DNA of 64,000 nucleotides. It comes from Escherichia phage vB_EcoP_PAS59. Where the stretch lies: the sequence record OQ921332.1. One strand, given 5' to 3'. A program made the translations under genes and the position numbers. Numbering within the stretch: position 1 is the stretch's first letter; every line of letters starts with the position of its first letter. Below the pieces are notes generated by a model. The model was not told where the DNA came from. It was given only the letters and a program-made list of their open reading frames with translations, and did not search any database. Shown here in pieces: positions 16,204-50,100 of this stretch.

Positions 16204-17154
16204 ATGTCAATCTCCGCATCGATTGCTCCGGTAACACCGGCAGAGGATTTCGGTGAGTCAGTGTTTAAAGGAAGGGCTTGCTTTGGTACTTTTAACTGTA
16301 TGCACATGTACTCTGTTACAGACATTAATGGCGACAGTCTTAGACAAACAAACCTTCGTGATAGAACTTCAGAAATTGAAGTTATTAACTTCTGGCCTCA
16401 CAATTTTTATGGCGTACCGTCTAAAGATATCGAAAGAGCTTTAGTTGAAGCAACAGACATTTTTAACTCAATGTCTTGCTATAAAGATATGTTCTCTGTC
16501 ACTTCGGTGAACTCTATTGCCGTGAACCTTCGAAACCATCCAGCAGACAAGGTGTTTACTGGACTAATGACCATCCGTAGCTATTTGGATGGTGATTTTA
16601 ATGGAATGGAGTTCCTTCAGGAAGGCGTACAAGACAAGGAAGAGTTGCTTAAGCGACAACGAATCGGTTTAGCTCTACGCCTAGCTGGTTTAAGTCGTAA
16701 CTTCTTTGGTCGCTGGTGTTATAGTAATGACGTAGACTCAACTGATGAGTCAGCAGCGACTTATTTTGATGGTGACATGAGTGCAATTGCATTTCTGCCA
16801 CTAATTTGCACCACTGATGAATTTTCTGAAAACGTATGGGTTCAGAATGTGTTCGGTGTTGATGATAACCGAGATGGTTATGTACGAAACCATAATGATG
16901 GAGTTCTCCGTCGTATGGCACGTCGTCGTGACCAAGACCCTGACCATTATGAGAGTATGAGTGAGTGGTTGCGTCTCTGGTCAACTTGTGCAGGTCACAA
17001 GCGAGAAGTATTAGATCAGCGTATGGACAGAATTACTGTTCGCAGTTTTATTGAACGTCTGATGCAAGCAGTACCTTCCTCAATGACACCAGAAGAAGCT
17101 GGTGCCCGTGTTGTTTCCCTTTTTGATGAACTCGTGGAGTATTACAATGACTAA
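16204..17154 (+). CDS. protein of unknown function
   Basis: ORF track; stop overlaps next start. Confidence 0.55.
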   Translation: MSISASIAPVTPAEDFGESVFKGRACFGTFNCMHMYSVTDINGDSLRQTNLRDRTSEIEVINFWPHNFYGVPSKDIERALVEATDIFNSMSCYKDMFSVTSVNSIAVNLRNHPADKVFTGLMTIRSYLDGDFNGMEFLQEGVQDKEELLKRQRIGLALRLAGLSRNFFGRWCYSNDVDSTDESAATYFDGDMSAIAFLPLICTTDEFSENVWVQNVFGVDDNRDGYVRNHNDGVLRRMARRRDQDPDHYESMSEWLRLWSTCAGHKREVLDQRMDRITVRSFIERLMQAVPSSMTPEEAGARVVSLFDELVEYYND

Positions 17155-17953
17155 GCGCGCTTTCCTTATTGGCTCTGACCCTGAAATGTTTGTTCGTACT
17201 GCTTCCGGTATTATCACCTCTGTGGCTGGTAAGCTGGGCTGTTCTAAAGATAATAAAATTGATCTGGCTCCTGATGTTCGTCTTCAAGAAGACAACGTTC
17301 TGGCTGAATTCGATATTAACCCACAGAAAGGGTTTGAAGCGTTTGATGATAATATTCAGCGTGGTATTGATCTGACTAACAAAGTTCTCAATGAACGTGG
17401 CATGGAGGCAGCACTTGGGATTAGCTCTCATGTGTTCACTTCAGAAGAACTTGAATCATTCCACCCGTCAGCTTTTGTATTTGGCTGTACTCCTGATTTC
17501 AATGCCTTCACTGGACAAAAGAACCCTTCACCAGTCGCAACCGATAAGGGTTTGCGTACTGCTGGGGGTCATGTGCACCTTGGTGTCTCCGGGACTTTAG
17601 AGATTACTCGACAAACTCAAATGATGTTGGGTGTGTTATGTGATTACTTCCTGTCCTTGCCAGCTGTGATCATGGATAAAGACACTCGTCGTAAAGAGTT
17701 GTACGGAAAGGCTTCTGCCATTCGCTACAAAGATTACGGTATTGAATATCGTTCTCTTTCTAACTTCTGGATTGGTGATAAGTCCACTCGCAAGTTTGTT
17801 TACGAGCAAGTGGATAAGGTTGTTCAGGGTTGTGATATGGAAGTGTTGATGTCACTTCACTCTCGCCTTCCAATTGAAAAGCTTCATAACATCATCAACA
17901 GCAACGATGTTAAAGAAGCGGATAAATTCTCCTCTAAACTCCAGATTGTATAA
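17147..17953 (+). CDS. glutamine-synthetase/GCS-like carboxylate-amine ligase (amidoligase), putative
   Basis: internal ATG of ORF track 17102..17953; motifs GSDPEMF, GGHVHLG, GIEYRSL in the order of the E..E / H.H / E.R motifs of YbdK-type ligases. Confidence 0.4.
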   Translation: MTKRAFLIGSDPEMFVRTASGIITSVAGKLGCSKDNKIDLAPDVRLQEDNVLAEFDINPQKGFEAFDDNIQRGIDLTNKVLNERGMEAALGISSHVFTSEELESFHPSAFVFGCTPDFNAFTGQKNPSPVATDKGLRTAGGHVHLGVSGTLEITRQTQMMLGVLCDYFLSLPAVIMDKDTRRKELYGKASAIRYKDYGIEYRSLSNFWIGDKSTRKFVYEQVDKVVQGCDMEVLMSLHSRLPIEKLHNIINSNDVKEADKFSSKLQIV

Positions 17954-17962
17954 GGTGATATT

Positions 17963-18589
17963 GTGAGCTTGTTAAGAGATTTTCAACACTATTATTGTGG
18001 AACATGGATTGCTCAGCGATCACCTGATGGTAAAAACCTCCCTCTATATGTGCTTGATGTTCGTCAGCAAGGTAACTTTGATATCGACGACTACTCACAC
18101 GACGCTGAAAGGTCTTTAGTGTTTGAGGCGGAACGCTGGACTAAAAACTCTGAAGGTCAGTTTGAACGTCAGATTGTTAGTAATATCCCAGTGTTTGATC
18201 ACAGCCTCATTCTAGAGTCTCCAGATGTAGGATACCTTCAGCATGGTAATAACATGGTGAGCTGGACCCATATCAACCCTGTTCGTCAGCGAGCTAAAGG
18301 CTTGATGGGGAATAAACTTCGTGGTGCTGCACCTTCTCTCGGACGTTCGATTCCGGGTGATTTGGTGTACAACTTGTTTAATCCAGAGTTTGAAGGGTTG
18401 GTTACTCGTTTCATCTATATCAACCCTGTCGATGGAAAAGTGTATTACAAAGGGGCTTACGTTGGAAACGTGCTTCTTGAAGCTGGCTATGGCGACAACG
18501 GTCGCCAATCTTTAAACCTTCTGGAGAAGTTCAAGCACATTTCTTCAGACCTGTCATCATATAATGTAGAGTTGGTGGAATCACTATGA
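17963..18589 (+). CDS. protein of unknown function
   Basis: ORF track; RBS AAGGTGA. Confidence 0.5.
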   Translation: MSLLRDFQHYYCGTWIAQRSPDGKNLPLYVLDVRQQGNFDIDDYSHDAERSLVFEAERWTKNSEGQFERQIVSNIPVFDHSLILESPDVGYLQHGNNMVSWTHINPVRQRAKGLMGNKLRGAAPSLGRSIPGDLVYNLFNPEFEGLVTRFIYINPVDGKVYYKGAYVGNVLLEAGYGDNGRQSLNLLEKFKHISSDLSSYNVELVESL

Positions 18590-19686
18590 CAACCGTAGCA
18601 CAAGTTTTTGGATACCGTAACCCTCGCTTATCTGAACCGCATCCAAGCATTGCTTTTCAGTGTGGTGTTGGTATTGAGTTAGAAGTCGAAGGTACTACTG
18701 ACATTGACGTTGATATGTGGGTTTGTACTGAAGACGGCTCTCTTCGTGATGGTTGTGAGTTAGTGTGTTCACGACCTTACAACGGTGAAGAATTACTTCG
18801 TGCTATTAACAATCTGAGTGAAGCAGTACAGGATTCTGGAGCCGAGGGGACTTGGCGCTGCTCCACTCACGTTCATATGGATATGCGGGACGCTGATAGT
18901 AATATCCTTAAGAAAGTTATTCTTGGGTGGACGTTCTATGAAAAGATGATGTTCAAATGTTCTGGATATCATCGTTACCGTAGTAACTTCTGCCCAGCTT
19001 TTGCTGTTGTTCAAGCTCAAGTTATGAATGCTTCATCAGCGTTCAACCGAGATGGGGAAGATTTCTTCCGTACTCTTGTTAATAGCTGGGACAAGTATAC
19101 CTCCCTTAACCTGTTGCCTCTATCTCAGTTTGGTTCTGTTGAGTTTCGTATTTCAGAGCCGAAGTGGAAAAAGAGTCAGCTGCTAAATCTGGTCAATCGC
19201 TTCTTGGTTCTCAAGAAACTGGCTGTTGAATATGCAGATTTAGATAATGAAGCTTATGTTGAGAAGTTGAATGAGCTGCGCTTCGCTCCTATGATTCAAC
19301 ATCTACCTCTAGACTATACTCCAAGAGATAGCGATCTCACTGAAGGGTATCGTCTTGCCCGTGATATTCTGTTCTGTCGTGAGCAATCTGTAACTTTGGT
19401 TGGTCGTGTTCGTGTGCAACAGACTGGCCCTGATGGTGAAGTCCTTATCAACTTACGTGACATGAATGACTTCTATGGTTTCTTGGGATATGTGCGCGGT
19501 AATGCCAACACTGTCTATGAAGAGATCATGACCTACTACACCCCTCAGATTGAAAGCACTCGAATCGCAACGGTTCGTGAAATTCGTCACATGTTTGCAT
19601 TGATGCGTGAATCAGGTAGCAGTGATAATAACATCACTGATTACATTCCAGACCATCTGGAAATGCAATTAGAACGACTGCTGTAA
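18586..19686 (+). CDS. glutamine-synthetase/GCS-like carboxylate-amine ligase (amidoligase), putative
   Basis: ORF track; motifs GIELEVEG, CSTHVHMD, SVEFRISE. Confidence 0.45.
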   Translation: MTTVAQVFGYRNPRLSEPHPSIAFQCGVGIELEVEGTTDIDVDMWVCTEDGSLRDGCELVCSRPYNGEELLRAINNLSEAVQDSGAEGTWRCSTHVHMDMRDADSNILKKVILGWTFYEKMMFKCSGYHRYRSNFCPAFAVVQAQVMNASSAFNRDGEDFFRTLVNSWDKYTSLNLLPLSQFGSVEFRISEPKWKKSQLLNLVNRFLVLKKLAVEYADLDNEAYVEKLNELRFAPMIQHLPLDYTPRDSDLTEGYRLARDILFCREQSVTLVGRVRVQQTGPDGEVLINLRDMNDFYGFLGYVRGNANTVYEEIMTYYTPQIESTRIATVREIRHMFALMRESGSSDNNITDYIPDHLEMQLERLL

Positions 19687-22246: not shown

Positions 22247-23494
22247 ATGACTACTCGTATCCGTGTTCTTCCGTATGGCCCGTCTGATTCTGTTAACGCT
22301 CTGGTATCTGCTATCAGTGATACTATCCGTGATGAACGTATCAACGCTAACATAATGGGTCTTCTTTCAGAGAACAGTCGCTGGCGTTCTCGTGAGGATG
22401 ATGTGGTTGTGAACTACGGGAACCGTCGCTATCCTGAATCCTTCTTTGGTTCTGCAACTGTCCTTAACCGTACCGCAGCCTTACATATGGCAGCGAACAA
22501 ACGTCGTGCTTTCAGCGTGATGGACCAAGCAGGTGTTAAAACTGTTGAGTATACAGATGTTCAAGAGATTGCTCAGGAGTGGTCAAACTCTGGCAACATT
22601 GTGTATGAACGTCATGAACTGACTGGTCACTCTGGTTCGGGTATCGTTGTTGTTGAGCCTCGTGATTCAATTGGTCAAGCTGAACTGTACACCAAAGGTA
22701 TTCAAGGTCCACGTCGTGAATGGCGTGTCCATGTGTTCAAAGGTGTTATCACCTATGTTCAGAAGAAGATTCGTCGTAACGGCTATCGTGAAGACCCTAA
22801 CTATCGTGAAGATGTTCGTAACCATCACACTGGTTGGGTTTACTCAAGTTCCTTCACAGACGCTCCAAATGATGCATCTCTGATCAACGCAGTGAAGGCC
22901 GTTGAATCGATGGGTCTGGATTTTGGTGCAGTTGATATCATTACCAAAGGCCGAGAAGCATGGGTACTGGAAGTTAACACAGCACCGGGCCTGACTGGTA
23001 CAACTCTGGATATCTACCGTCACAACATCCTTGAGTTTGTTAAAGCTCAAAATCCTCTCTATACTCCTCAGTATAAAGTGGGTTACCAGACTCCTGTTGA
23101 AGCTCCAATCGAAGACGGAGATGGAGAGTTGGTAGATGACAGCGAAAGCGCTAATGATGAAAACTTTGCACTGGAAGGTCAGGTAGCACAGCCGGTTGAG
23201 TTGGTAGATGTAGTTCCTGAAGAGATGCAACTGGAAGGTCAGATGAATACTCAAACTATTCGTAATGCACCTACTGGTTACACTTTATCTCGTGGTTATT
23301 GGATTGCAGATATCCGTCATGTCCATAACAACCTGCAACCGAATGCAATGTCTTCCAATGTCATTTTGTTCTGTGATGGTCGTAACTTCTACCGTAGTGG
23401 CTGGAACGTTCCGGTCAATCCAGTCCAGATTCATAACCCTCGCAAGTTAGAATCTGTCAATGTTGAAGGTAGCGAAGTAGCAGTAACTCTGTAA
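22247..23494 (+). CDS. ATP-grasp ligase (RimK-like) with acidic C-terminal extension
   Basis: ORF track; ERHELTGHSGSGIVVVEP, EWRVHVFKG, DFGAVDII...WVLEVNTAPG. Confidence 0.55.
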   Translation: MTTRIRVLPYGPSDSVNALVSAISDTIRDERINANIMGLLSENSRWRSREDDVVVNYGNRRYPESFFGSATVLNRTAALHMAANKRRAFSVMDQAGVKTVEYTDVQEIAQEWSNSGNIVYERHELTGHSGSGIVVVEPRDSIGQAELYTKGIQGPRREWRVHVFKGVITYVQKKIRRNGYREDPNYREDVRNHHTGWVYSSSFTDAPNDASLINAVKAVESMGLDFGAVDIITKGREAWVLEVNTAPGLTGTTLDIYRHNILEFVKAQNPLYTPQYKVGYQTPVEAPIEDGDGELVDDSESANDENFALEGQVAQPVELVDVVPEEMQLEGQMNTQTIRNAPTGYTLSRGYWIADIRHVHNNLQPNAMSSNVILFCDGRNFYRSGWNVPVNPVQIHNPRKLESVNVEGSEVAVTL

Positions 23495-32754: not shown

Positions 32755-33075
32755 ATGATCAACGATAGTACATTTAGGACTGGTAACGGAAATGAAATCA
32801 GTCCTGCTGAAGTGATTAAACGACACAGAACACAGATGCTTATCCACTCCTATTTGTATTATTGGTTGGATGACCCAATCTGGTCTGACGATAAGTGGCA
32901 ACAAGTGGCTGATGACTTAACCACCTTGCAAGAGATGTATCCTGAGCCTATTGGATTCTTCGATTCAGAGTTCAATGGATGGAATGGCTCCACTGGTATG
33001 CATCTTCCTCATGACGAGCGTATAGCTTGTATGGCTACTGAAGTATACCGTTTACATAAGGACAAATCAATCTGA
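32755..33075 (+). CDS. hypothetical protein
   Basis: ORF track. Confidence 0.45.
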   Translation: MINDSTFRTGNGNEISPAEVIKRHRTQMLIHSYLYYWLDDPIWSDDKWQQVADDLTTLQEMYPEPIGFFDSEFNGWNGSTGMHLPHDERIACMATEVYRLHKDKSI

Positions 33076-33257
33076 AATGTTTTAAATGTGAATCAACTCT
33101 TCTCCATTTGGACTCGAAAGTAATACGGGAGCTTGCCAAAGGCTCCCCGACTAAAGGGAAGAATAAGAAGTTTGTCGAAATTAAGGTTATAGGTATCCAT
33201 TGCTCAGAGTGTAAATCCTGTAGCTTCTTATATGAAGAACACGGAGGTAGGAAATGA
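33072..33257 (+). CDS. candidate zinc-ribbon protein with no canonical start codon (CTG 33072 or ATC 33066 proposed)
   Basis: open frame 33060-33257 encodes CFKC...CSECKSC; stop overlaps the PhoH ATG; AAGGA 9 nt upstream of CTG. Confidence 0.3.
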   Translation: MKCFKCESTLLHLDSKVIRELAKGSPTKGKNKKFVEIKVIGIHCSECKSCSFLYEEHGGRK

Positions 33258-33991
33258 GTCGTAGAGAATCTCGGAAAGCATCACGGAGAGAATTACGTCG
33301 TGAAGCTCTCGTCACCAAGAAAGGAAAGCGGGAATTTGAAGAAGTAGTTCTTGCTAAGCCGGTAGTACCTCAGAACCAATTCCAGAGTGAGCTGCTTGAT
33401 GCAATTAAAACCAAACAGGTTGTATTCACAGATGCTCCTGCTGGCTGTGGTAAGACATTCGTAATCACTTCTACAGTGATCGATGCTCTGAAGAGTGGGA
33501 AGATTGAGAAGATTATCCTAAGCCGACCTGCTGTTGGTATGGGTAACAGTCTAGGATTACTTCCCGGTGGGCTTCGTGAGAAATTTGAACCATACCTGAT
33601 GCCAATTGTTGATGTTATCACTCAGCGTTATGGTAAAGGCTTCTATGAGTGTCAAATTGGTAATGGTAACATTGAGTTTGTACCTCTGGAATACCTCCGT
33701 GGCCGTTCATTCAACGATGCTATTGTGATTGTTGATGAGTTCCAGAATACCACTCCTGATGAAGCATATTCAATTATGACTCGTCTTGGTGAAACCTCTC
33801 AGATGTTCTGTATGGGGGACACCAATCAGCACGATATGCGTGGTGAGAGTGGTCTAGATTGGGCTACTGATTTCATATACCGTCACAAATTGTTTGAATT
33901 TGCCGCTCTAGTAGATGGTGAATCGGATGATATTGTTCGTTCAGGTTTCTGTAAAGCTATTGTCAAAGCAATGGAATCTGAAAAATCATAA
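33254..33991 (+). CDS. phoH: PhoH-like ATPase
   Basis: ORF track; Walker A AGCGKTF; Walker B VIVDEFQN. Confidence 0.8.
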   Translation: MSRRESRKASRRELRREALVTKKGKREFEEVVLAKPVVPQNQFQSELLDAIKTKQVVFTDAPAGCGKTFVITSTVIDALKSGKIEKIILSRPAVGMGNSLGLLPGGLREKFEPYLMPIVDVITQRYGKGFYECQIGNGNIEFVPLEYLRGRSFNDAIVIVDEFQNTTPDEAYSIMTRLGETSQMFCMGDTNQHDMRGESGLDWATDFIYRHKLFEFAALVDGESDDIVRSGFCKAIVKAMESEKS

Positions 33992-41057: not shown

Positions 41058-41113
41058 TATACAAACCGCTCAAAGAGAGCAACAATCTTAAATCTATATA
41101 AGGAAATATTAAT

Positions 41114-41854
41114 ATGTCTATGATCCCTGAACTGTCTGTATCCCGTAAATCCAACTACGATGTAATCCCTGATGGTGAGTACGAAGCACGTATTGTTCGT
41201 GTTGTAGGTTTGGGTGTTCACAATCGTGACCCTTGGATTGACCCTAAGACCAAAGCAGTTACCCCTAAGAACCCAGCTTTCCGTATGGACTTAGCTTTTG
41301 AGCTGATTGGCGTAGATGCAACAGGGACTGATAATGAAGGCAAACCTCTGGACCCTCGTCCTGCTTGCCAGTTTAAATCTTTCGATGTAAACCCACGAGC
41401 TAAGAACTCTGGTATTCTAAATCTGATTAAAATGATCGACCCAAGTGTTCAAGCACTGAAAGGTGATTTGGGTTGGTTTAAAGATATGCTGTTAGGTCAG
41501 CCTGTTAACATTCTGGTTAACTCTTACACCAATAAAGCTGGTGAGAAGAAAAACTCCATTAAAAGCATCACTCCAATCCCGACTAAATATCGTGACGCGG
41601 TAGGTGCTCCTCGTAGTGAGTTGATCTTCTTCGAACCGTATGCTGAGACTGACGCTAACTTAGCTGCTTATCAAGCAATCTTCCCATTCCAACGTAACCT
41701 CTTGACTCAAGCTAACGATGCTAAGAATATCCCTCTGGCTGGTCGTGAAGTTACTAAAGCTTCTGATACTGAACAGAAAGATGCTACTCCAAGCATCCCT
41801 ACCATTAATGAAGAGCCGCAATCAACCTTTGAAGAGGATGATTCGCCTTTCTAA
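41114..41854 (+). CDS. single-stranded DNA-binding protein (T7 gp2.5-like), putative
   Basis: ORF track; acidic C-terminal tail ending FEEDDSPF; position in the replication module. Confidence 0.45.
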   Translation: MSMIPELSVSRKSNYDVIPDGEYEARIVRVVGLGVHNRDPWIDPKTKAVTPKNPAFRMDLAFELIGVDATGTDNEGKPLDPRPACQFKSFDVNPRAKNSGILNLIKMIDPSVQALKGDLGWFKDMLLGQPVNILVNSYTNKAGEKKNSIKSITPIPTKYRDAVGAPRSELIFFEPYAETDANLAAYQAIFPFQRNLLTQANDAKNIPLAGREVTKASDTEQKDATPSIPTINEEPQSTFEEDDSPF

Positions 41855-41876
41855 GAATCTCTCCTTGTAACAGCTT

Positions 41877-41900
41877 AGCCACCTTCGGGTGGCTTTTTTC
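41877..41900 (+). terminator. rho-independent terminator (overlaps the GTG/ATG region of the next gene)
   Basis: AGCCACC-ttcg-GGTGGCT followed by TTTTTTC. Confidence 0.5.
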
Positions 41901-41912
41901 GTTGGAGTTAAA

Positions 41913-42254
41913 ATGGAAAAGCTTCAAAACAATATAGGTTTTTTAATCTTCACAGCTCTGGTTTTCTTTGGTGGTGTCAAGTTTGAGCAATACAGAAGTG
42001 ATAGTAATGCTCTTGACCATGAGAAGAAACAGCAAGAGATTGAGGTTGAGAGAGCTAAGGCTGCTGATGAAGTGGCTCAGAAAGTTCTGACTGGTTTATC
42101 TAACTGGAAGAAGAACACGGAAACTATTTACAAAGAGATGCATTATGAAAAGACTAAGCCAGTTTTTTACAATGTGTGTGCTAGTGATGAGTATGTAGGA
42201 CTTTTCAATGAACGACAGCAACAAGCAGCGGAGGCACTGAAATTAAAGAATTAG
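41913..42254 (+). CDS. i-spanin-like protein (N-terminal TM helix plus periplasmic coiled coil), putative
   Basis: internal ATG of ORF track 41889..42254; its C-terminal GLFNERQQQAA is repeated at protein level at 42743-42775. Confidence 0.4.
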   Translation: MEKLQNNIGFLIFTALVFFGGVKFEQYRSDSNALDHEKKQQEIEVERAKAADEVAQKVLTGLSNWKKNTETIYKEMHYEKTKPVFYNVCASDEYVGLFNERQQQAAEALKLKN

Positions 42255-42736
42255 TTAAATATCTATCTTACAATGAGGTTTCTGGTCTTCTCTGCTGGAA
42301 ACAGTCTGAGGATAAGAGCGCTCAGTGGAATTCAAGATTCGCTGGAAAGGTGGCAGGTTGTAAAGCCACAGATGGCTATACAGTGATTACCTATCAATAT
42401 AAACAGTACAAAGCTCATAGAATTGCTTGGTATATCAAAACTGGAGAGATTCCTGATTTTCAAATAGACCATAAAGATTTAGACAAATCTAATAATTCTT
42501 GGAGCAATCTAAGAAGAGCAACACCTGTCCTTAATAATGCCAACAAAATAGTTCAAAAGAACTCTTTAACTGGAATAAAAGGTGTAGGGTACAGGTCGGA
42601 TATTAACAAATGGAGTGCTCGCATCGGATATCAAAACAAAGTAATTTGGCTTGGTTATCACAGCACTCAAGATGGTGCAGAAAATGCTTACAAAGAAAAA
42701 GCAAAAGAGTTGTTTGGTGATTTTTCTCGCTTCTAG
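42242..42736 (+). CDS. HNH homing endonuclease; start proposed at ATT 42242
   Basis: ORF track gives 42350..42736, but the conserved N-terminal region (KELVKYLSYNEVSGLLCWK, aligning with LKRLLKYDPNSGQFTWK of 45226) lies upstream in frame with no ATG/GTG/TTG; GGAGG 7 nt before the ATT. Confidence 0.55.
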   Translation: MKELVKYLSYNEVSGLLCWKQSEDKSAQWNSRFAGKVAGCKATDGYTVITYQYKQYKAHRIAWYIKTGEIPDFQIDHKDLDKSNNSWSNLRRATPVLNNANKIVQKNSLTGIKGVGYRSDINKWSARIGYQNKVIWLGYHSTQDGAENAYKEKAKELFGDFSRF

Positions 42737-42950
42737 TTTGATGGCTTGTTCAACGAGCGACAACAGCAGGCAGCTAATGCCCTTACCAACAAACCTAAAA
42801 GCTGAATGTGATGTAGACCTCCCTTTACTTCAGAGTGGACAGGGAGTAGCACTTGCAACAACACTCGAGTGGTATCAGGACAATTATACAACCTGTGCCG
42901 CTAACCACAACGGTTTGCTTAAAGCTCTCAAGGAGAGAGGAATACAATGA
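42672..42950 (+). CDS. o-spanin-like lipoprotein, putative
   Basis: internal ATG of ORF track 42651..42950; KKKQK n-region, hydrophobic core, LMAC lipobox-like site; overlaps the remnant i-spanin 3' end in another frame. Confidence 0.4.
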   Translation: MVQKMLTKKKQKSCLVIFLASSLMACSTSDNSRQLMPLPTNLKAECDVDLPLLQSGQGVALATTLEWYQDNYTTCAANHNGLLKALKERGIQ

Positions 42951-43171
42951 TCAGAGCGGAACTTACAATACCAGAAGGTGTTACTCAGTTTCATGCAGTA
43001 TGGGAACACAATAACCAAATCTTTGGTTGTACCTTCAAGTTCTTTATTAATGAAAATGGGTCTTATTGGGCTTATTATGTCCCTGAAGATGATATATGGT
43101 CTCGGATTGGGCATCCAAGTCAACACATTCCTTGCCCTGAAACAGCAATGTATTTATTCTGCGTAGTTTAA
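42947..43171 (+). CDS. hypothetical protein
   Basis: ORF track. Confidence 0.4.
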   Translation: MIRAELTIPEGVTQFHAVWEHNNQIFGCTFKFFINENGSYWAYYVPEDDIWSRIGHPSQHIPCPETAMYLFCVV

Positions 43172-43195
43172 TATAAAGTAAGTTAAGGATGACTT

Positions 43196-43846
43196 ATGAA
43201 GAAAAAGACAACACCCACACGCTATCGTATTCATGGCATACCTATTAAATACTACCCAACCTTCGATGAATTCTATCGAGAGAATTGGAAAGTTGTGCAT
43301 AAGTATTTTATGTACGACATTAAAGATTATCACGAAGCAGAGGATGTTGCTCAGGAAGTGTTACTGAACTCTTGGCGTTTTGTATTTGCAAAGCAAGAAG
43401 AACTGCTGCTTACCGATGAAAAAGATATTGAACACATGACTTATCGTGTGAAGAATATCATCTGGTCGATTCGTTCTAATCGACAGACAGTTGGAGACAG
43501 ACGTATCTATTCTATTCCAGAGGCTGATATGTTTAGACCTCCCGAGATGAATTCATGGGAAAGTCCTTTAGAGATTGCTATGGATAAGCATGATTCTACT
43601 GGAGACCCATTCTTGGAATCTAGAATCTTTTTCTTCTTCCAAGACCTAAGTGATATTATGGAAAACCGCAAGATGGCAAGTATGTTCTCAATGCTCTTCC
43701 TCGGTATTCCTCATGATCACATCCAACAAGAGCTGGGAATTTCACACGGAACCTTCTATCGCCGTTATTCGGAGAATCGTGATCTGTATGAAGCGGTAGT
43801 AGAGAAGCACTTTGATAAAGAAGATCTTCAAGGGATGATTCAATAA
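43196..43846 (+). CDS. ECF-like sigma factor (phage-encoded), putative
   Basis: ORF track; region-2-like [15 protein letters not shown]; C-terminal HTH-like [19 protein letters not shown]. Confidence 0.5.
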
Positions 43847-44442
43847 TGAGTAAACCTTTAGTAGTAATCCTAAATGGACCTCCGGGTTGTGGTAAAGATA
43901 CAATCGCTAATGCTTGGTTAGAGAAGACAGCTGGTAACACTGAGTTTAGACCGCATGTAAAGGCTTTTAAGGAGCCTATGTATCGGGTGGCTGCTGCTGC
44001 ATTAGGTCTCCCTCTTTATGAGTTCATGGAGCTGTACAACGACCGTGAGTGGAAAGAACTTGTCCGTCCTGAATGGGGAGGTAAGTCAGTTCGAGATTTG
44101 ATGATTGCAACTAGCGAGAATTATCTGAAGCCTATGTTTGGTGAGACCTGCATGGGTAAACTTGCTGTTAGCAGTATCCAACAACATATCCCATCACAGA
44201 ATGATGTTATCGTCTTCTCTGATGGTGGTTTTAGAGCAGAAGTTGAAGAACTAGAGAGACACTTCCATGTTCGAGTAGTTCAGGTTCTCCGCGATGGCTG
44301 CTCCTTTGAAGGAGACTCCCGTTCTTATATTGAAGGAACAAACCTACCAACCTACCTCCTCTTTAATGACCGTTCTGTAGAAGAGGCAGTTGAGGATTTA
44401 GAGTGGATTATTGAAGGGACACGGAGAGATCTCTATGTCTGA
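43846..44442 (+). CDS. P-loop nucleotide kinase (dNMP kinase-like)
   Basis: ORF track; Walker A ILNGPPGCGKDT. Confidence 0.55.
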   Translation: MSKPLVVILNGPPGCGKDTIANAWLEKTAGNTEFRPHVKAFKEPMYRVAAAALGLPLYEFMELYNDREWKELVRPEWGGKSVRDLMIATSENYLKPMFGETCMGKLAVSSIQQHIPSQNDVIVFSDGGFRAEVEELERHFHVRVVQVLRDGCSFEGDSRSYIEGTNLPTYLLFNDRSVEEAVEDLEWIIEGTRRDLYV

Positions 44443-45253
44443 TGTAATCTATCCTGAAGTGGCAATTGTGGATGCAGATGTTCTACGATATGAAGTCGGT
44501 GCTCTTACACAAGAGCATCCTTTTCTAGACACAGGTCGTGTTCCAGTTGATTATGGATTCTTGATTGAACGACTTCAACATAAAATAGATGTAATCATTG
44601 CAAGGTCTGGTTGCGAGAAAACAATCTTTTACTTCAGCGAAGGTGGTAATTTTCGGTTTGATATTGCTAAGCAGCAAGGCTATAAAGCTAATCGACCACC
44701 GGGAGAAAGACCTCACCACTGGCAAAATGTCAGTGATTACATTAAAGAGAATTACGAATACGTAGAAGTTTTTGGGAGAGAGGCGGATGATGCCCTAGCT
44801 GAAAGACAGAGACGTGATAAGAACACTATCATTTGCACCCGTGATAAAGATTTGTTAATCACTCCCGGATGGCATTACCGTTGGGCTTGCGGGGAGAGAC
44901 AGAAAGAAGTACCTCCTCACTATGTATCAGAGGAAGTAGCATGGCAGAACTTCTTCTACCAGATGCTGATCGGGGATAGCACAGATAACATTCCCGGATG
45001 CGGTGAGAAGGTTGAAATGATGTGGGGTGGCAATCTAGTAATGCGTCGTAAAGGCATTGGTAGTAAGGCTGCAATCAAACTTATTGAGAAGGTATTCGAT
45101 AAGTGGACTCTTTATCATATTATACGAATGGAATACTATAAAAGGTTCGAGGAAGAAGCAGAAGCTAAGATGTTAGAAAATGCTCGATTGCTCTTCGTTG
45201 GACAAGCTGAAGGTGACCTCTTTGATTGGTCATGGTTAAACAAGGAATGGTGA
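44435..45253 (+). CDS. 5'-3' exonuclease (T7 gp6-like)
   Basis: internal ATG of ORF track 44411..45253; GYKANRP, CTRDKDLL, IGDSTDNIPG align with T7 gp6 motifs as recalled. Confidence 0.65.
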   Translation: MSDVIYPEVAIVDADVLRYEVGALTQEHPFLDTGRVPVDYGFLIERLQHKIDVIIARSGCEKTIFYFSEGGNFRFDIAKQQGYKANRPPGERPHHWQNVSDYIKENYEYVEVFGREADDALAERQRRDKNTIICTRDKDLLITPGWHYRWACGERQKEVPPHYVSEEVAWQNFFYQMLIGDSTDNIPGCGEKVEMMWGGNLVMRRKGIGSKAAIKLIEKVFDKWTLYHIIRMEYYKRFEEEAEAKMLENARLLFVGQAEGDLFDWSWLNKEW

Positions 45254-45741
45254 TCTTGGATAGAGAAGAGTTAAAAAGGCTTCTCAAGTATGATCCAAAT
45301 AGTGGTCAGTTTACTTGGAAAGTTAAGAAAGGTAGGAAGAATGTTGGAGATGCGGCTGGATGCTTTTATGGAAAACATAGATACCGCTGCATCAAGTTAA
45401 ATCAAATATTGTATCAATCTCATAGACTTGCATACCTTTACATGGAAGGTTACATTCCTGATTGTGTAGACCACATAGACGGAGACCCTTCTAATAACAA
45501 GTGGTGCAATCTAAGAGAAGCAACTTTAAGTCAGAATCAGTGGAACAGAAAGATCTCTATAAACTGCACTTCCGGAATCAAGGGAGTCTCTTTCCATAAA
45601 AGAGCTAATAAGTGGAGAGCTATTATTGGAGTGTCTGGGAAATCTATCCATCTAGGGTATTATGCAACTAAAGAAGAGGCTGAAGAAGCCCTGAGACTGA
45701 AAAGAGAAGACCTACACTTAGGCTTTCATCGTCACAAATAA
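45226..45741 (+). CDS. HNH homing endonuclease (HNH + AP2-like)
   Basis: ORF track; SHRLAYLYMEGYIPDCVDHIDGDPSNNKWCNLR. Confidence 0.7.
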   Translation: MVMVKQGMVILDREELKRLLKYDPNSGQFTWKVKKGRKNVGDAAGCFYGKHRYRCIKLNQILYQSHRLAYLYMEGYIPDCVDHIDGDPSNNKWCNLREATLSQNQWNRKISINCTSGIKGVSFHKRANKWRAIIGVSGKSIHLGYYATKEEAEEALRLKREDLHLGFHRHK

Positions 45742-47193: not shown

Positions 47194-50100
47194 TTACTCC
47201 TTAGCTCGAACTCTAACACGGAGTTTAGCTTGACGCTTACTTCTCTCCAACTTGTCAGACAGAGAACCACGTTTGACTTTCAACTCTCCCTCGTCATTAT
47301 ACTTCTCCAAGAACTGTAAATACTCTTGTCGAGTAGTTGTCTTGTAAGAAGGAATCTTAGCATTAGGATTCGCTTCAATCACACGTCTAATCTTAGCTAC
47401 ATCATCCCTCCCTAAAAGTTTCCCTTTAGCTTGTTCTGCTGTAGAACCAAAGATCTTCTCAAGTGCTCGAGATTTGTTACCACCTGCCGAAGCAGCACCA
47501 AGTTTCGCAATAGCAGAATAATCATCAGCACTAAACCAAGCCACTGGATTATCTCCATAACGTTTCTTGTTCTCAGCAGCAGTCTGTAGAGCACGCACAA
47601 ATCGACGGTTGTTACCAGCCTTATCTGCACCATGAACCCTATCTAGAACCTCTGCAACACTCGCCAACTCCTGCAAGTCTTTCCCTTCAATAAAAGCTTT
47701 CTCTGCTTTGTTAGCAAAGTCGTCTTCCTGCTTCTTAATACTTTCAAGAATATCAGAGTTAGCCTGAGATCTTTCATCCTCAGGTAGAGCCGAACGAATC
47801 TTCTCCATTTCTTTCTCTTCATCTAAAAGTTTCTTAAAGTCAGAATCAACTTTACGAGCATCTTCGATAGCTTTTGATGTTTCTGCATCAAGGTCAGAAG
47901 TTTTCCCATCTGCATCACCAGTTGCCTTAGCAATCTCTCTTTCGATTGGAGTAGCTGTTTCATACTTCTTAACAAACTTCTCTACGTCAGATTCGATACG
48001 AGCACGAGCATTCTGATGTTCCACTGGAGTCATAGGTTTCTCTAACAAAGCATACCGATTGTCCATATAAGAACCAGCATACGCTTCAGCATCCTCCCTA
48101 GAAACCCCCTTCTCTTCCAAAGTGTTGACTAAACGCTTATGAATGTCGTCACGTTGACGTTGAACTGCCATTAGGTCATTCTCTCGTTCCTGAGCTTCTT
48201 TCAGAGCCTTATCTCTCTTCACTCTAGAATCAATATCAAACCTACGGTTCATTTCCTCAGCCTGTTCATACATCCTATTCCACTTAGCCTCACGAGCATC
48301 TTCCTCTGCTTCGGTCAAACGACGTTTGCGATCGAGGTAATCACTCTCAGCGTTGTGAATACGTTCAATAATACTACGGAAACGCTCTGGTGGTACTGGA
48401 GAGTTTTTATCATGGTGAGCAGCAAGCTGCTTCAAAGTACGACCTTCCTGAGCTTCTCTGACACTTTCAGGCAATTCTTTGAACATCTTCTCCATCTCGG
48501 ACTTCTGAGCCGCTATAGCTTCCAAGGACTGCTTTTCAGCTTCCATAGCTGCCTTGGCATCATTACGAGCCTTAGCTCTGTTACGGAGCGTCTCAAGACG
48601 TTCTTGACGTGCTTGCAAGTGTTTAGCCGCTGCTTCGTATTGAGAGTTCTTGTTAGCCTTGTTGAACATGTTAACTTCTCGGTTATATGTATTGATAAAC
48701 CCATCCCACACATCCTTCATTTGACCAACTTCCAAAGCCTCAACCCTTCCAGCTTTCTCTGAAGATTTAAACTTACTCTCCACGAAGTCTTCCATAATCC
48801 TACGCATAGCATCTTTCTGAGCAGGACGTAACGGTTCTGCATCAAGCAGTGTACCAATTTCATCCTGAAGCTCTTTCTTCTGATCTACCAGTTTAGGAGC
48901 ATCTTTCTTGTCAAAAGCTTTATTCTCTTCCAGAGCCTCTCGATAGAGACGGTCAAATTCATCATCTCTCTGTTTCTGATATAAACGCTCAGCTCTTCGT
49001 TTCAGTGAGTCTAGACTTGTGACGTTTCCACCCAAACCCTTCTCTTCAGCACGTAAAGCCTTAGTAGCAATATCAGAAGGCAACCCACGCTCTTTTACCC
49101 AATCAGCAAAAGAAGAACGAACATGTTGAGACTTAGCAGAAGCAATACCTTGCTGTGAAGCTAGCTGGTTTCTAGCCATCTCTTCATGACGCTGTGTGTT
49201 GTTTGCTTGGTCTTCCTGACGGATACGACGCATAAGCTCTTTAGGGTCTCCTTTATAAGAAAGGAAGTTTTCCGCAGTAGCTTTGGCTTTAGCAGCAGCC
49301 GAATACAAAGAACGAGCAAATCGGTCAGCACGATCTTTTGTTGCCTGACGGGCAGCAGTTGACATAGAAGCCAGACGCTCTACACCGAGTGATGGTTTAA
49401 CAGGCTCAGGAGCCTTCTCAGGAGCTTTGGGCGCACGAGCAGGTAATGGCTCAGGTTTCTCTTGAGGTTCCTCTACGGTCTTCTCAGGAGCTTCTTTAGC
49501 ACGTTCTGCTTCCTCTGCTTCTTGACGTTTCTTCGCTTCTGCTACAGCTCTGCGCTGAGCTACTAGTTCTCTTGCTGTCAGTGCTTCTTGCTGTGGTTCA
49601 GGTTCTGGAGTAGTGCTTTCTTGAGCCTGAGCAGCTTCCGCTTCTTGACGTCTAAGTTCTGCTTGTTGTAGAGCACGTCTTTGAGCAACTAAATCTCTTG
49701 CCGTAAGAGGTGTTTCAGTAGGAGCTGGAGAGGAAGGAATTTCTTCCGTCACAGTAGTAGCAGAAGGCTCCTCACGAACCGGTTCGGAAGGGGCATCATT
49801 TTGGGTACGGAATTTGATGTCTTCTGTGGTTGGTTCTTCTTCCATTTTTGCTCTTGCTTCTTCGGCTTGAGTTCTAGCTCGTTGTACTTCTAAATCCGCT
49901 CTAGCCAAAGAACGAATAGCTTCACTATTAGCTGACTGTTGTTTCTCTCGTTGAGCACGAGCACGATCAGAAGTGAAACGATTAAGTACATACTTAGCCG
50001 CACCAAGAGGATTCTTAACCAAGACAGGAGCTGGAGCTTCACGGAAACCATCATCAGTCAGAGAGGTCCAACCGCGATCTTGGTTGCTCATGAACTTAGC

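Follow-up and report, generated by a model that had tools for sequence, protein, structure and literature searches.

Where does translation of a gene begin when the conserved N-terminus of its product is encoded ahead of any ATG, GTG, or TTG codon? This question is raised by an HNH endonuclease gene of Escherichia phage vB_EcoP_PAS59 (sequence record OQ921332.1), a phiEco32-like Escherichia coli podophage (Gordonclarkvirinae). We analyzed a stretch of 64,000 nucleotides (nt) of this DNA, referred to here in its full length as the window, in which the gene lies at a spanin locus that is 96% identical to that of vB_EcoP_SU7 (SU7) and 93% identical to that of Bas87. Comparison of the gene with its relatives leads us to propose that translation likely starts, directed by a Shine-Dalgarno (SD) sequence, at the AUU codon at 42242, or at AUC in other lineages. 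The elements concerned are as follows.

42230-42234, plus strand: GGAGG, Shine-Dalgarno-like, with the 7-nt spacer CACTGAA before the ATT
42242-42244, plus strand: ATT, proposed AUU initiation codon of the HNH endonuclease
42242-42736, plus strand: HNH homing endonuclease open reading frame (ORF) as proposed, 164 codons and a stop
42254-42349, plus strand: codons 4 to 35, conserved N-terminal coding part ahead of any canonical start, overlapping no other gene
42350-42352, plus strand: GTG, first canonical start and the SU7 RefSeq start, giving a 128-amino-acid (aa) product without the N-terminal hairpin

An open frame ahead of the first canonical start

The HNH frame (frame 2) is closed by a TGA at 42209-42211 and is then open from 42212 to the TAG at 42734-42736. 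From 42212 onward it reads ACG ACA GCA ACA AGC AGC GGA GGC ACT GAA ATT AAA GAA, and none of the 46 codons at 42212-42349 is ATG, GTG, or TTG; a canonical start first appears with the GTG at 42350. The upstream i-spanin gene ends with the codons CTG AAA TTA AAG AAT TAG. Its stop codon, at 42252-42254, lies 10 nt 3' of the ATT, giving an overlap of 13 nt from the ATT in which the first four endonuclease codons run over the i-spanin tail. The original prediction made from this DNA had described a frame open back to 42212, the lack of canonical starts before GTG 42350, and an ATT at 42242 situated 7 nt past a GGAGG, all of which can be read directly. It had also held that the upstream stretch, IKELVKYLSYNEVSGLLCWK, aligns with a paralogous HNH endonuclease encoded at 45226, and BLASTP bore this out (38% identity, E = 4e-31), with the alignment beginning at the residue right after the ATT. 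After its start residue, the N-terminus of the ATT-started protein reads KELVKYLSYNEVSGLLCWK.

Several lines of evidence indicate that the codons ahead of the GTG are coding. The match to phrog_99 covers residues 11 to 173 of the 174-residue open frame, residue 11 being the ATT codon. In a tblastn search of phages, 331 of 334 matches spanned at least 80% of the ATT-started 164-aa protein, beginning at residues 1 to 7, and in an alignment of 24 sequences the homologues start with M-x(1-4) just ahead of the aligned residue, for example MITQERLKELLSYDPLTG against TEIKELVKYLSYNEVSG. The ratio of nonsynonymous to synonymous substitution (dN/dS) in four pairs was 0.17, 0.14, 0.05, and 0.28 for codons 4 to 35, and 0.16, 0.13, 0.09, and 0.14 for codons 36 to 163. 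Between the two main cassette clades the synonymous sites are saturated (proportion of synonymous differences, pS, 0.74 to 1.0), and the proportion of nonsynonymous differences (pN) is 0.19 to 0.27 in both parts of the gene. An AlphaFold2 model built with an 18-sequence alignment had a mean predicted local distance difference test (pLDDT) score of 89.4, with values of 95, 97, 92, and 94 for the first four ten-residue blocks, and the pre-GTG part was modeled as a helix, a beta-hairpin, and a second helix. These data indicate protein-level selection on the codons ahead of the GTG, which, according to the model, are part of the family fold. The upstream conservation whose absence would have spoken against the original prediction is thus present in every homologous locus, at the protein level, with dN/dS values of 0.05 to 0.28 over codons 4 to 35.

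Judged by sequence and modeled fold, the enzyme is unremarkable within a large family of HNH_3/AP2-type, I-HmuI-like phage homing endonucleases. It matched Pfam HNH_3 (PF13392) at 51 bits against a cutoff of 24.8 (E = 1.1e-13) and phrog_99 with an E value of 2.3e-57. The C-terminal AP2 match in Pfam, at 24.9 bits, was below the cutoff of 33.3; a family profile searched against the Protein Data Bank (PDB) matched plant AP2 structures in the C-terminal part (7wq5, E = 1.9e-8; 7et4, E = 9.7e-5), and Foldseek matches to AP2 had a root mean square deviation (rmsd) of 1.1 to 1.9. The catalytic residues H77, N85, N89, and N101, numbered on the HNH protein, are invariant in the 18-sequence family alignment, D76 is nearly so, and these residues align to the DHKDGNKDNN...N motif of I-HmuI. 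The closest solved structure is I-HmuI of Bacillus phage SPO1 (PDB 1U3E), with which the protein shares the DH...N...N motif and an N-terminal beta region ahead of it. The PDB profile search aligned 65 columns to 1u3e (query positions 40 to 104, E = 6e-8), whereas Foldseek aligned 103 columns with a probability of 1.00; as the structural match is longer than that by sequence, it appears to take in the N-terminal region. This region of I-HmuI reportedly contacts DNA. I-HmuI itself is a nicking enzyme encoded in a group I intron, with an AUG start and a helix-turn-helix C-terminal domain, whereas the HNH protein is free-standing, has what is probably an AP2-type C-terminal domain, and lacks a canonical start. 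We infer nuclease activity and homing for the HNH protein.

The start region in 11 cassette loci

The gene is carried on a cassette, and the start region was compared across 11 cassette loci, comprising six GenBank phages, four metagenomic contigs, and the window. Two IMG/VR scans returned distant relatives only; a metagenome scan added one cassette (L017) and a control set of 62 members. Counted from the ATT as 0, the first canonical starts are as follows.

Window, SU7, P0001c, and L010: GTG at +36
Bas86 and Bas87: TTG at +48, codon +36 being GTT
EK010: ATG at +12
E20-1, KM01, and L017: GTG at +12
P0004c: ATG at +74

A start at the first canonical codon, GTG 42350, would make a functional 128-aa enzyme and leave the upstream frame as a relic. 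This is what the SU7 RefSeq annotation and gene-finder calls on the metagenomic contigs imply, and GTG is a far stronger initiator than ATT. However, the GTG is missing in Bas86 and Bas87 (annotated start at +48), in P0004c (+74), and in the EK010 clade (+12); codon +36 is GAG in the EK010 clade, and a GTG at this position is limited to the SU7-like clade and one metagenomic lineage. Thus, the start at 42350 that would have contradicted the original prediction is not conserved among homologous loci. There is no SD before the GTG (ctggaaagGTG), a relic would have needed to keep its frame open at dN/dS values of 0.05 to 0.28 through synonymous saturation, and the truncation would lose the helix, the beta-hairpin, and the second helix (pLDDT above 90) that are present in every family member. 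We therefore regard initiation at the GTG as quite unlikely.

The position of the ATT is more constant. The anchor codon, as we call the codon aligned with it, is ATT or ATC in 10 of 11 loci, with five of each, and the eleventh locus, L010, has a different in-frame ATT. A GAGG core lies 7 to 8 nt 5' of the anchor in all 10 ATT/ATC loci, and in L010 an AGGA lies 8 nt 5' of its ATT. The core is kept although the i-spanin codons that overlap it differ, encoding A-E-A, A-E-V, T-E-V, or K-R-V. Downstream, the LSYDE motif (codons 7 to 11) is kept in every clade via synonymous change (CTA TCT TAC AAT GAG, CTG TCT TAT GAC GAG, TTA TCC TAT GAT GAA, and TTA TCA TAT GAT GAA). In the EK010 clade (clade C), a stop codon lies 5 codons 5' of the ATC anchor, which together with the conserved LSYDE confines the start in this clade to a span of 11 codons. 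In this span, clade A has ATT (0) as its one start-like codon, clade B has ATT (0) and ATT (+4), and clade C has ATC (0) and ATA (+3); the only start-like codon common to all loci 5' of LSYDE is the ATT/ATC, with GAGG or AGGA ahead of it. In the wider family, the residue aligned to the anchor isoleucine varies (Q, A, T, or E; alignment A3). The isoleucine is thus invariant in the cassettes yet variable in the family, which points to a role as a codon. In the control set of 62 distinct, distant metagenomic family members, 59 had a canonical start within -13 to +4 codons of the aligned position, ATG being the one picked in 58; the three exceptions include another spanin cassette.

The L010 lineage (ENA ERZ22233142; L010 positions 1060-1135; the protein occurs on five contigs) carries a 1-nt insertion in a T-run that puts the first seven codons out of frame. 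The i-spanin TAG is in frame with, and directly ahead of, the remaining HNH ORF, in which the sole start-like codon before LSYDE is an ATT located 3 nt past the i-spanin stop. The insertion could be a real variant that uses another ATT, a homopolymer assembly error, or the onset of decay. Decay may also be considered for the gene as a whole, in which case the gene once had an ATG and now yields no full-length protein, while the cassette is kept only for the essential spanin pieces that it supplies. Homing endonuclease genes commonly degenerate after fixation, the cassette is not cleanly deletable since the i-spanin gene takes its tail from it and the o-spanin gene its signal peptide, and the L010 lineage is frameshifted near its 5' end. 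In contrast, the 164-codon frame is intact in 10 of the 11 loci with invariant catalytic and structural residues, and the dN/dS values of 0.05 to 0.28 across synonymously saturated clades imply that the non-ATG state is old and the protein still selected. Moreover, the clade C cassette occurs in two i-spanin backgrounds (EK010 type and KBNP1711 type), consistent with recent mobility. These observations make a silenced gene quite improbable.

The HNH frame is -1 relative to that of the i-spanin gene and is open for 10 codons before the ATT, and a programmed -1 frameshift near the i-spanin end could therefore join the i-spanin and the endonuclease in a fusion protein, the GGAGG then serving as a stimulator like that of dnaX; in the window, the GGAGG lies about 10 nt 5' of an A-AAG. 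The EK010 clade even has a pattern-perfect U UUA AAA in the i-spanin frame right before its ATC. However, the purine-rich motif of this clade abuts the heptamer rather than lying 10 to 14 nt away, and the -1 frame is open there for only four codons. A heptamer of the form X XXY YYZ is absent in the window, SU7, Bas86 and Bas87, P0001c, P0004c, and L010; for the window, the original prediction had already noted that a classical -1 slippery heptamer is not evident in the overlap, and we found none in the i-spanin frame there. No stable downstream structure is predicted (z = -0.02), and the established topology of spanins means that fusion to the i-spanin membrane anchor would place the nuclease in the periplasm, away from DNA. 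We consider a frameshift very improbable. The U UUA AAA heptamer is found in L004 at about 1436-1446 and in L006, L007, and L017, all of the EK010 clade, and is absent from the clade of the window. It is probably a by-product of the AAA ATC context but is the one feature that would fit a -1 frameshift.

Several points weigh against initiation at the AUU/AUC codon. Within the window, GGAGG-N7-ATT occurs twice against 1.77 expected, which is the chance frequency, and of the 33 GGAGG sites on the plus strand, only 12 are followed by a canonical start, so that most of them are not ribosome-binding sites. Conservation over the first four codons could be explained in part by the overlapping i-spanin frame, and the roughly six independent cassette lineages limit the conservation argument statistically. 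In the EK010 clade, the in-frame ATG or GTG at +12 could serve as the start, and the L010 lineage shows that the exact start is not fixed and that the first residues are dispensable. As GGAGG and GGAGG-N7-ATT are unenriched, their counts were left out as evidence. The start-free lead of 46 codons is likewise unexceptional alone, ranking eighth among the 120 long open frames of the window; the frame at 48175-48762, with a start-free lead of 60 codons, was set aside since it looks noncoding. It is solely the comparative and family evidence that raises the ATT observation beyond chance.

The cassette and its spanin patches

The endonuclease cassette is inserted at the overlap of the i-spanin and o-spanin genes, where its ends appear to serve both of them. 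The features of the locus are as follows.

41913-42254, plus strand: i-spanin (Rz-like) gene, frame 0, 113 aa; phrog_1152, E = 3.5e-33
42145-42198, plus strand: dead remnant of the ancestral o-spanin signal peptide, MKRLSQFFTMCVLVMSM and a stop, cut by the TAG at 42196-42198 at the left junction
42197-42743, plus strand: homing-endonuclease cassette, a 547-bp insertion relative to the endonuclease-free phage vB_EcoP-101114UKE3 (UKE3)
42198-42254, plus strand: recoded i-spanin C-terminal tail, GLFNERQQQAAEALKLKN and a stop, borne by the cassette and forming the last 19 i-spanin codons
42684-42950, plus strand: o-spanin gene, 88 aa, the same ORF as the SU7 GenBank O-spanin
42743-42805, plus strand: ghost i-spanin tail, GLFNERQQQAANALTNKPKS and a stop, in no i-spanin ORF and identical to the endonuclease-free allele

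The flanks of the cassette are 97.5% and 99% identical to UKE3, whose endonuclease-free junction reads GATGAGTATGTCAGCTTGTTCAACGAGCG. The cassette was found in 8 of 98 matching records, representing six phages (SU7, Bas86, Bas87, EK010, E20-1, and KM01); in the other records listed, the match falls into two parts that leave out the insert. Such sporadic presence in near-identical, collinear genomes is the pattern of a homing endonuclease gene, and the clade C cassette is found in two i-spanin backgrounds. The upstream gene is annotated as an Rz-like spanin in SU7, EK010, and UKE3, and its product has a hydrophobic N-terminus, IGFLIFTALVFFGGV, as expected of a membrane anchor.

In endonuclease-free alleles, the o-spanin gene starts inside the i-spanin gene, as MKRLSQFFTMCVLVMSMSAC followed by STSDNSRQLMPLPTNLKAEC; the same frame reads MKRLSQFFTMCVLVMSMSAC followed by STSD. 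In the window, this frame survives to the left of the cassette as the dead remnant, reading ATG TGT GTG CTA GTG ATG AGT ATG TAG. The i-spanin tail that the cassette supplies in its left patch differs from the copy at 42743-42805 at 10 of 14 codons synonymously, with 13 of 14 residues and 29 of 42 nt identical. The latter copy is a ghost, retained because its +1 frame encodes the N-terminus of the mature o-spanin (CSTSDNSRQLMPLPTNLKAEC). The endonuclease SD and start codon both sit inside the cassette-borne piece of the i-spanin gene.

The right patch consists of the last 60 nt of the cassette (42684-42743), of which 53 nt (42684-42736) overlap the 3' end of the HNH gene in another frame, within the last 17 codons of the endonuclease. 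It supplies an o-spanin signal peptide, MLTKKKQKSCLVIFLASSLMAC (42684-42749), that starts at ATG 42684 and ends with the resident cysteine codon at 42747-42749. Such a peptide, in which a K-rich n-region and a hydrophobic core lead up to L-[MSTA]-A-C, follows a canonical start in each of the 11 cassettes; the lipobox was read by eye. The resulting 88-aa o-spanin matched positions 6 to 82 of the 86 in phrog_2425 (E = 1.9e-23) and, weakly, the spanin family phrog_456. Two other o-spanin starts were rejected as each leaves no signal peptide, namely ATG 42741 (MACSTSD...), which the EK010 clade also lacks, and ATG 42777 (MPLPTN...), which is widely annotated. In most GenBank records the o-spanin (42684-42950 in the window; L003 1347-1607) is given as 57 aa, starting with MPLPTNLKAEC and without a signal peptide; the endonuclease-free form has MKRLSQFFTMCVLVMSMSAC within the i-spanin gene.

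The two tails bear on whether the insertion is intron-like, with an i-spanin gene that is split and joined, as implied by the BASEL records of Bas86 and Bas87, which show the Rz-like spanin as a two-piece join across the HNH gene. A second i-spanin tail that looks in frame does follow the HNH stop. However, the upstream i-spanin ORF is already whole, since it has a tail and a stop of its own and encodes 113 aa where uninterrupted relatives have 115 aa, and the two tails are a duplication rather than halves. In addition, the 547-bp insert is almost wholly ORF, and an Rfam scan of 41500-43300 at E values up to 1 gave three weak, unrelated matches and no group I or II intron. A spliced i-spanin gene is thus extremely improbable, and both spanin genes, as far as can be read from the sequence, stay whole without splicing. 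At the sites of the BASEL join (L002 1114-2006 and L005 172-1064), the sequence holds a complete i-spanin gene and a duplicated, recoded tail.

An endonuclease gene between spanins has a precedent, as Kongari et al. (2018) reported a GIY-YIG gene between the spanins of the T5-like phages Shivani and phiR201, in comparison with T5 (PMC6139136). As in our cassette, an overlapped spanin pair was made separate, and the i-spanin differs at its extreme C-terminus and the o-spanin in its signal sequence only. In contrast to our locus, the nuclease belongs to another family and the phages are others, and neither an overlap of the endonuclease gene with both patched ends nor a start anomaly is described there (PMC6139136).

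Upstream of the locus, 19 nt 5' of the i-spanin start, lies a strong hairpin resembling an intrinsic terminator (41877-41894, AGCCACC-TTCG-GGTGGCT followed by a T-run), the sole clear terminator in a promoter and terminator scan that yielded promoter matches at consensus level only and at background frequency. Transcripts of the i-spanin, endonuclease, and o-spanin genes must either read through this hairpin or use an unrecognized promoter.

Proposed initiation at AUU and other near-cognate starts

Under the proposed mechanism, the AUU at 42242 would be decoded as formylmethionine, giving a product of 164 residues, and the GGAGG located 7 nt 5' would help initiation there. As the overlap with the upstream gene, up to its stop, is 13 nt, initiation is likely coupled to termination, such that ribosomes that end i-spanin translation at UAG 42252, 10 nt 3' of the AUU, would probably reinitiate nearby; coupling to i-spanin termination is thus a probable part of the mechanism. 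As initiators in E. coli, AUU, AUC, AUA, and CUG reach 1 to 2% of AUG, and infC and pcnB are the only confirmed AUU genes (bioRxiv 10.1101/063800). A weak AUU or AUC, at about 1 to 2% of AUG output, would yield scarce nuclease from a late lysis-gene mRNA. We hypothesize, as the original prediction did, that the start may keep nuclease expression low, and further that this is of benefit; low output from AUU or AUC fits the tight limits placed on homing endonucleases in general (PMC2988022). Avoidance of ATG may be partly mechanical in clades A and B, because with ATG in place of ATT the i-spanin frame would read AAA TGA and so gain a stop. The same change in clade C would only replace serine with tryptophan, and so this is not the whole reason.

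RNA folding of 42195-42300 gave a minimum free energy (MFE) of -18.8 kcal/mol (z = -0.02 against shuffles), with no stable structure predicted. A regulatory hairpin at the start was considered and rejected; the MFE structure pairs GCAGCGGAGGC with the downstream CUUCUCUGCUG, at the same z score, and the partners are not conserved in Bas87 or EK010.

The proposed start resembles those of infC and pcnB in that a conserved coding region begins at AUU, an SD lies upstream, and the low output expected would act as a regulatory device. The starts of infC and pcnB have been proven by experiment, with infC under autoregulation by IF3, whereas the HNH start is deduced by comparison. Two further differences from infC and pcnB are that the codon is AUU in some relatives and AUC in others, and that it is embedded in the 3' end of another gene, whose stop follows 10 nt later. 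A further parallel is offered by T4, in which segC, segF, mobA, and mobC overlap the upstream ORF by 11 to 24 bp and low-frequency reinitiation has been proposed (PMC2988022). In these genes and in mobE, which has UAAUGA, a free-standing endonuclease gene without a strong initiation region of its own would make limited amounts of nuclease, as we propose here. The T4 genes, however, start with AUG (GUG in mobA) and sit between genes, whereas the HNH gene has neither codon as its proposed start and sits within an overlap read in two frames.

The original prediction had further suggested that non-canonical initiation is used for a subset of genes, naming an amidotransferase gene and a zinc-ribbon ORF. 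The zinc-ribbon case held up. In this ORF (33066-33257), the first CxxC motif lies 5' of the first canonical start, TTG 33108, and when the ORF is read from CTG 33072 its match to phrog_14369 spans the full length (1-61 of 61). The codons CTG AAA TGT of the window, Bas87, and Bas88 are ATG AAG TGC in phiEco32 and SU7 (LKC and MKC, respectively), so that CTG 33072 corresponds exactly to the ATG of the latter phages. It overlaps the upstream stop (CTGA) and has an AAGGA 9 nt 5', which makes a CUG start coupled to termination likely. The amidotransferase case, with its ATT, could not be located by Pfam searches of eight large ORFs or among the leads of nine ORFs. The window is mosaic, its region at about 33 kb (32950-33300) being 100% identical to Bas87 and only 68% identical to SU7, against 93% and 96%, respectively, at the spanin locus (41100-43200). 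It also carries an amidoligase gene cluster of the phiEco32 type at 17102-19686 and 22247-23494 (COOH-NH2 ligase PF14395, Amidoligase_2 PF12224, and a weak RimK ATP-grasp match).

The paralogous HNH_3/AP2 endonuclease gene (45226-45741; product 38% identical) overlaps the end of a 280-aa gene at 44411-45253 that, from its sequence alone, is taken to encode a 5'-3' exonuclease. Canonical starts are available to the paralogue, one of them being ATG 45247, which overlaps a stop in ATGGTGA, and therefore the non-canonical start is specific to the cassette at the spanin locus. Together, the endonuclease and zinc-ribbon genes suggest that near-cognate starts occur at stop/start junctions. That such initiation is a deliberate, recurrent device in Gordonclarkvirinae, with the AUU endonuclease and the CUG zinc ribbon as cases, strikes us as unlikely. 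If it were true, post-termination ribosomes or phage-altered start-codon proofreading would set very low, coupled expression, and the cassette would be a coevolved three-gene overlap of i-spanin tail, endonuclease, and o-spanin signal peptide, harmless and undeletable.

Each element is already known separately, namely near-cognate starts, endonuclease genes coupled to the ORF ahead of them, and the presence of such genes between spanins. Our literature search found neither an AUU- or AUC-initiated phage homing endonuclease, the nearest case being a GTG start in mycobacteriophages, nor a cassette whose ORF overlaps both patched ends of host genes; the SU7 and BASEL papers do not discuss the spanin-locus cassette. 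The cassette context in the spanin overlap is also new relative to the original prediction.

If the AUU start is correct, public records and gene calls of this endonuclease are all truncated at the N-terminus, at 100, 116, 128, or 152 aa, and cloning of the annotated ORF would probably give an inactive or mis-specific enzyme. Levels of homing endonucleases are known to be limited by hairpins that sequester the ribosome-binding site, by late promoters, and by coupling. Start-codon choice would then join these known limits. The cassette itself illustrates how a mobile gene can enter DNA that is read in two frames, bringing replacement ends for both host genes that overlap its own ORF.

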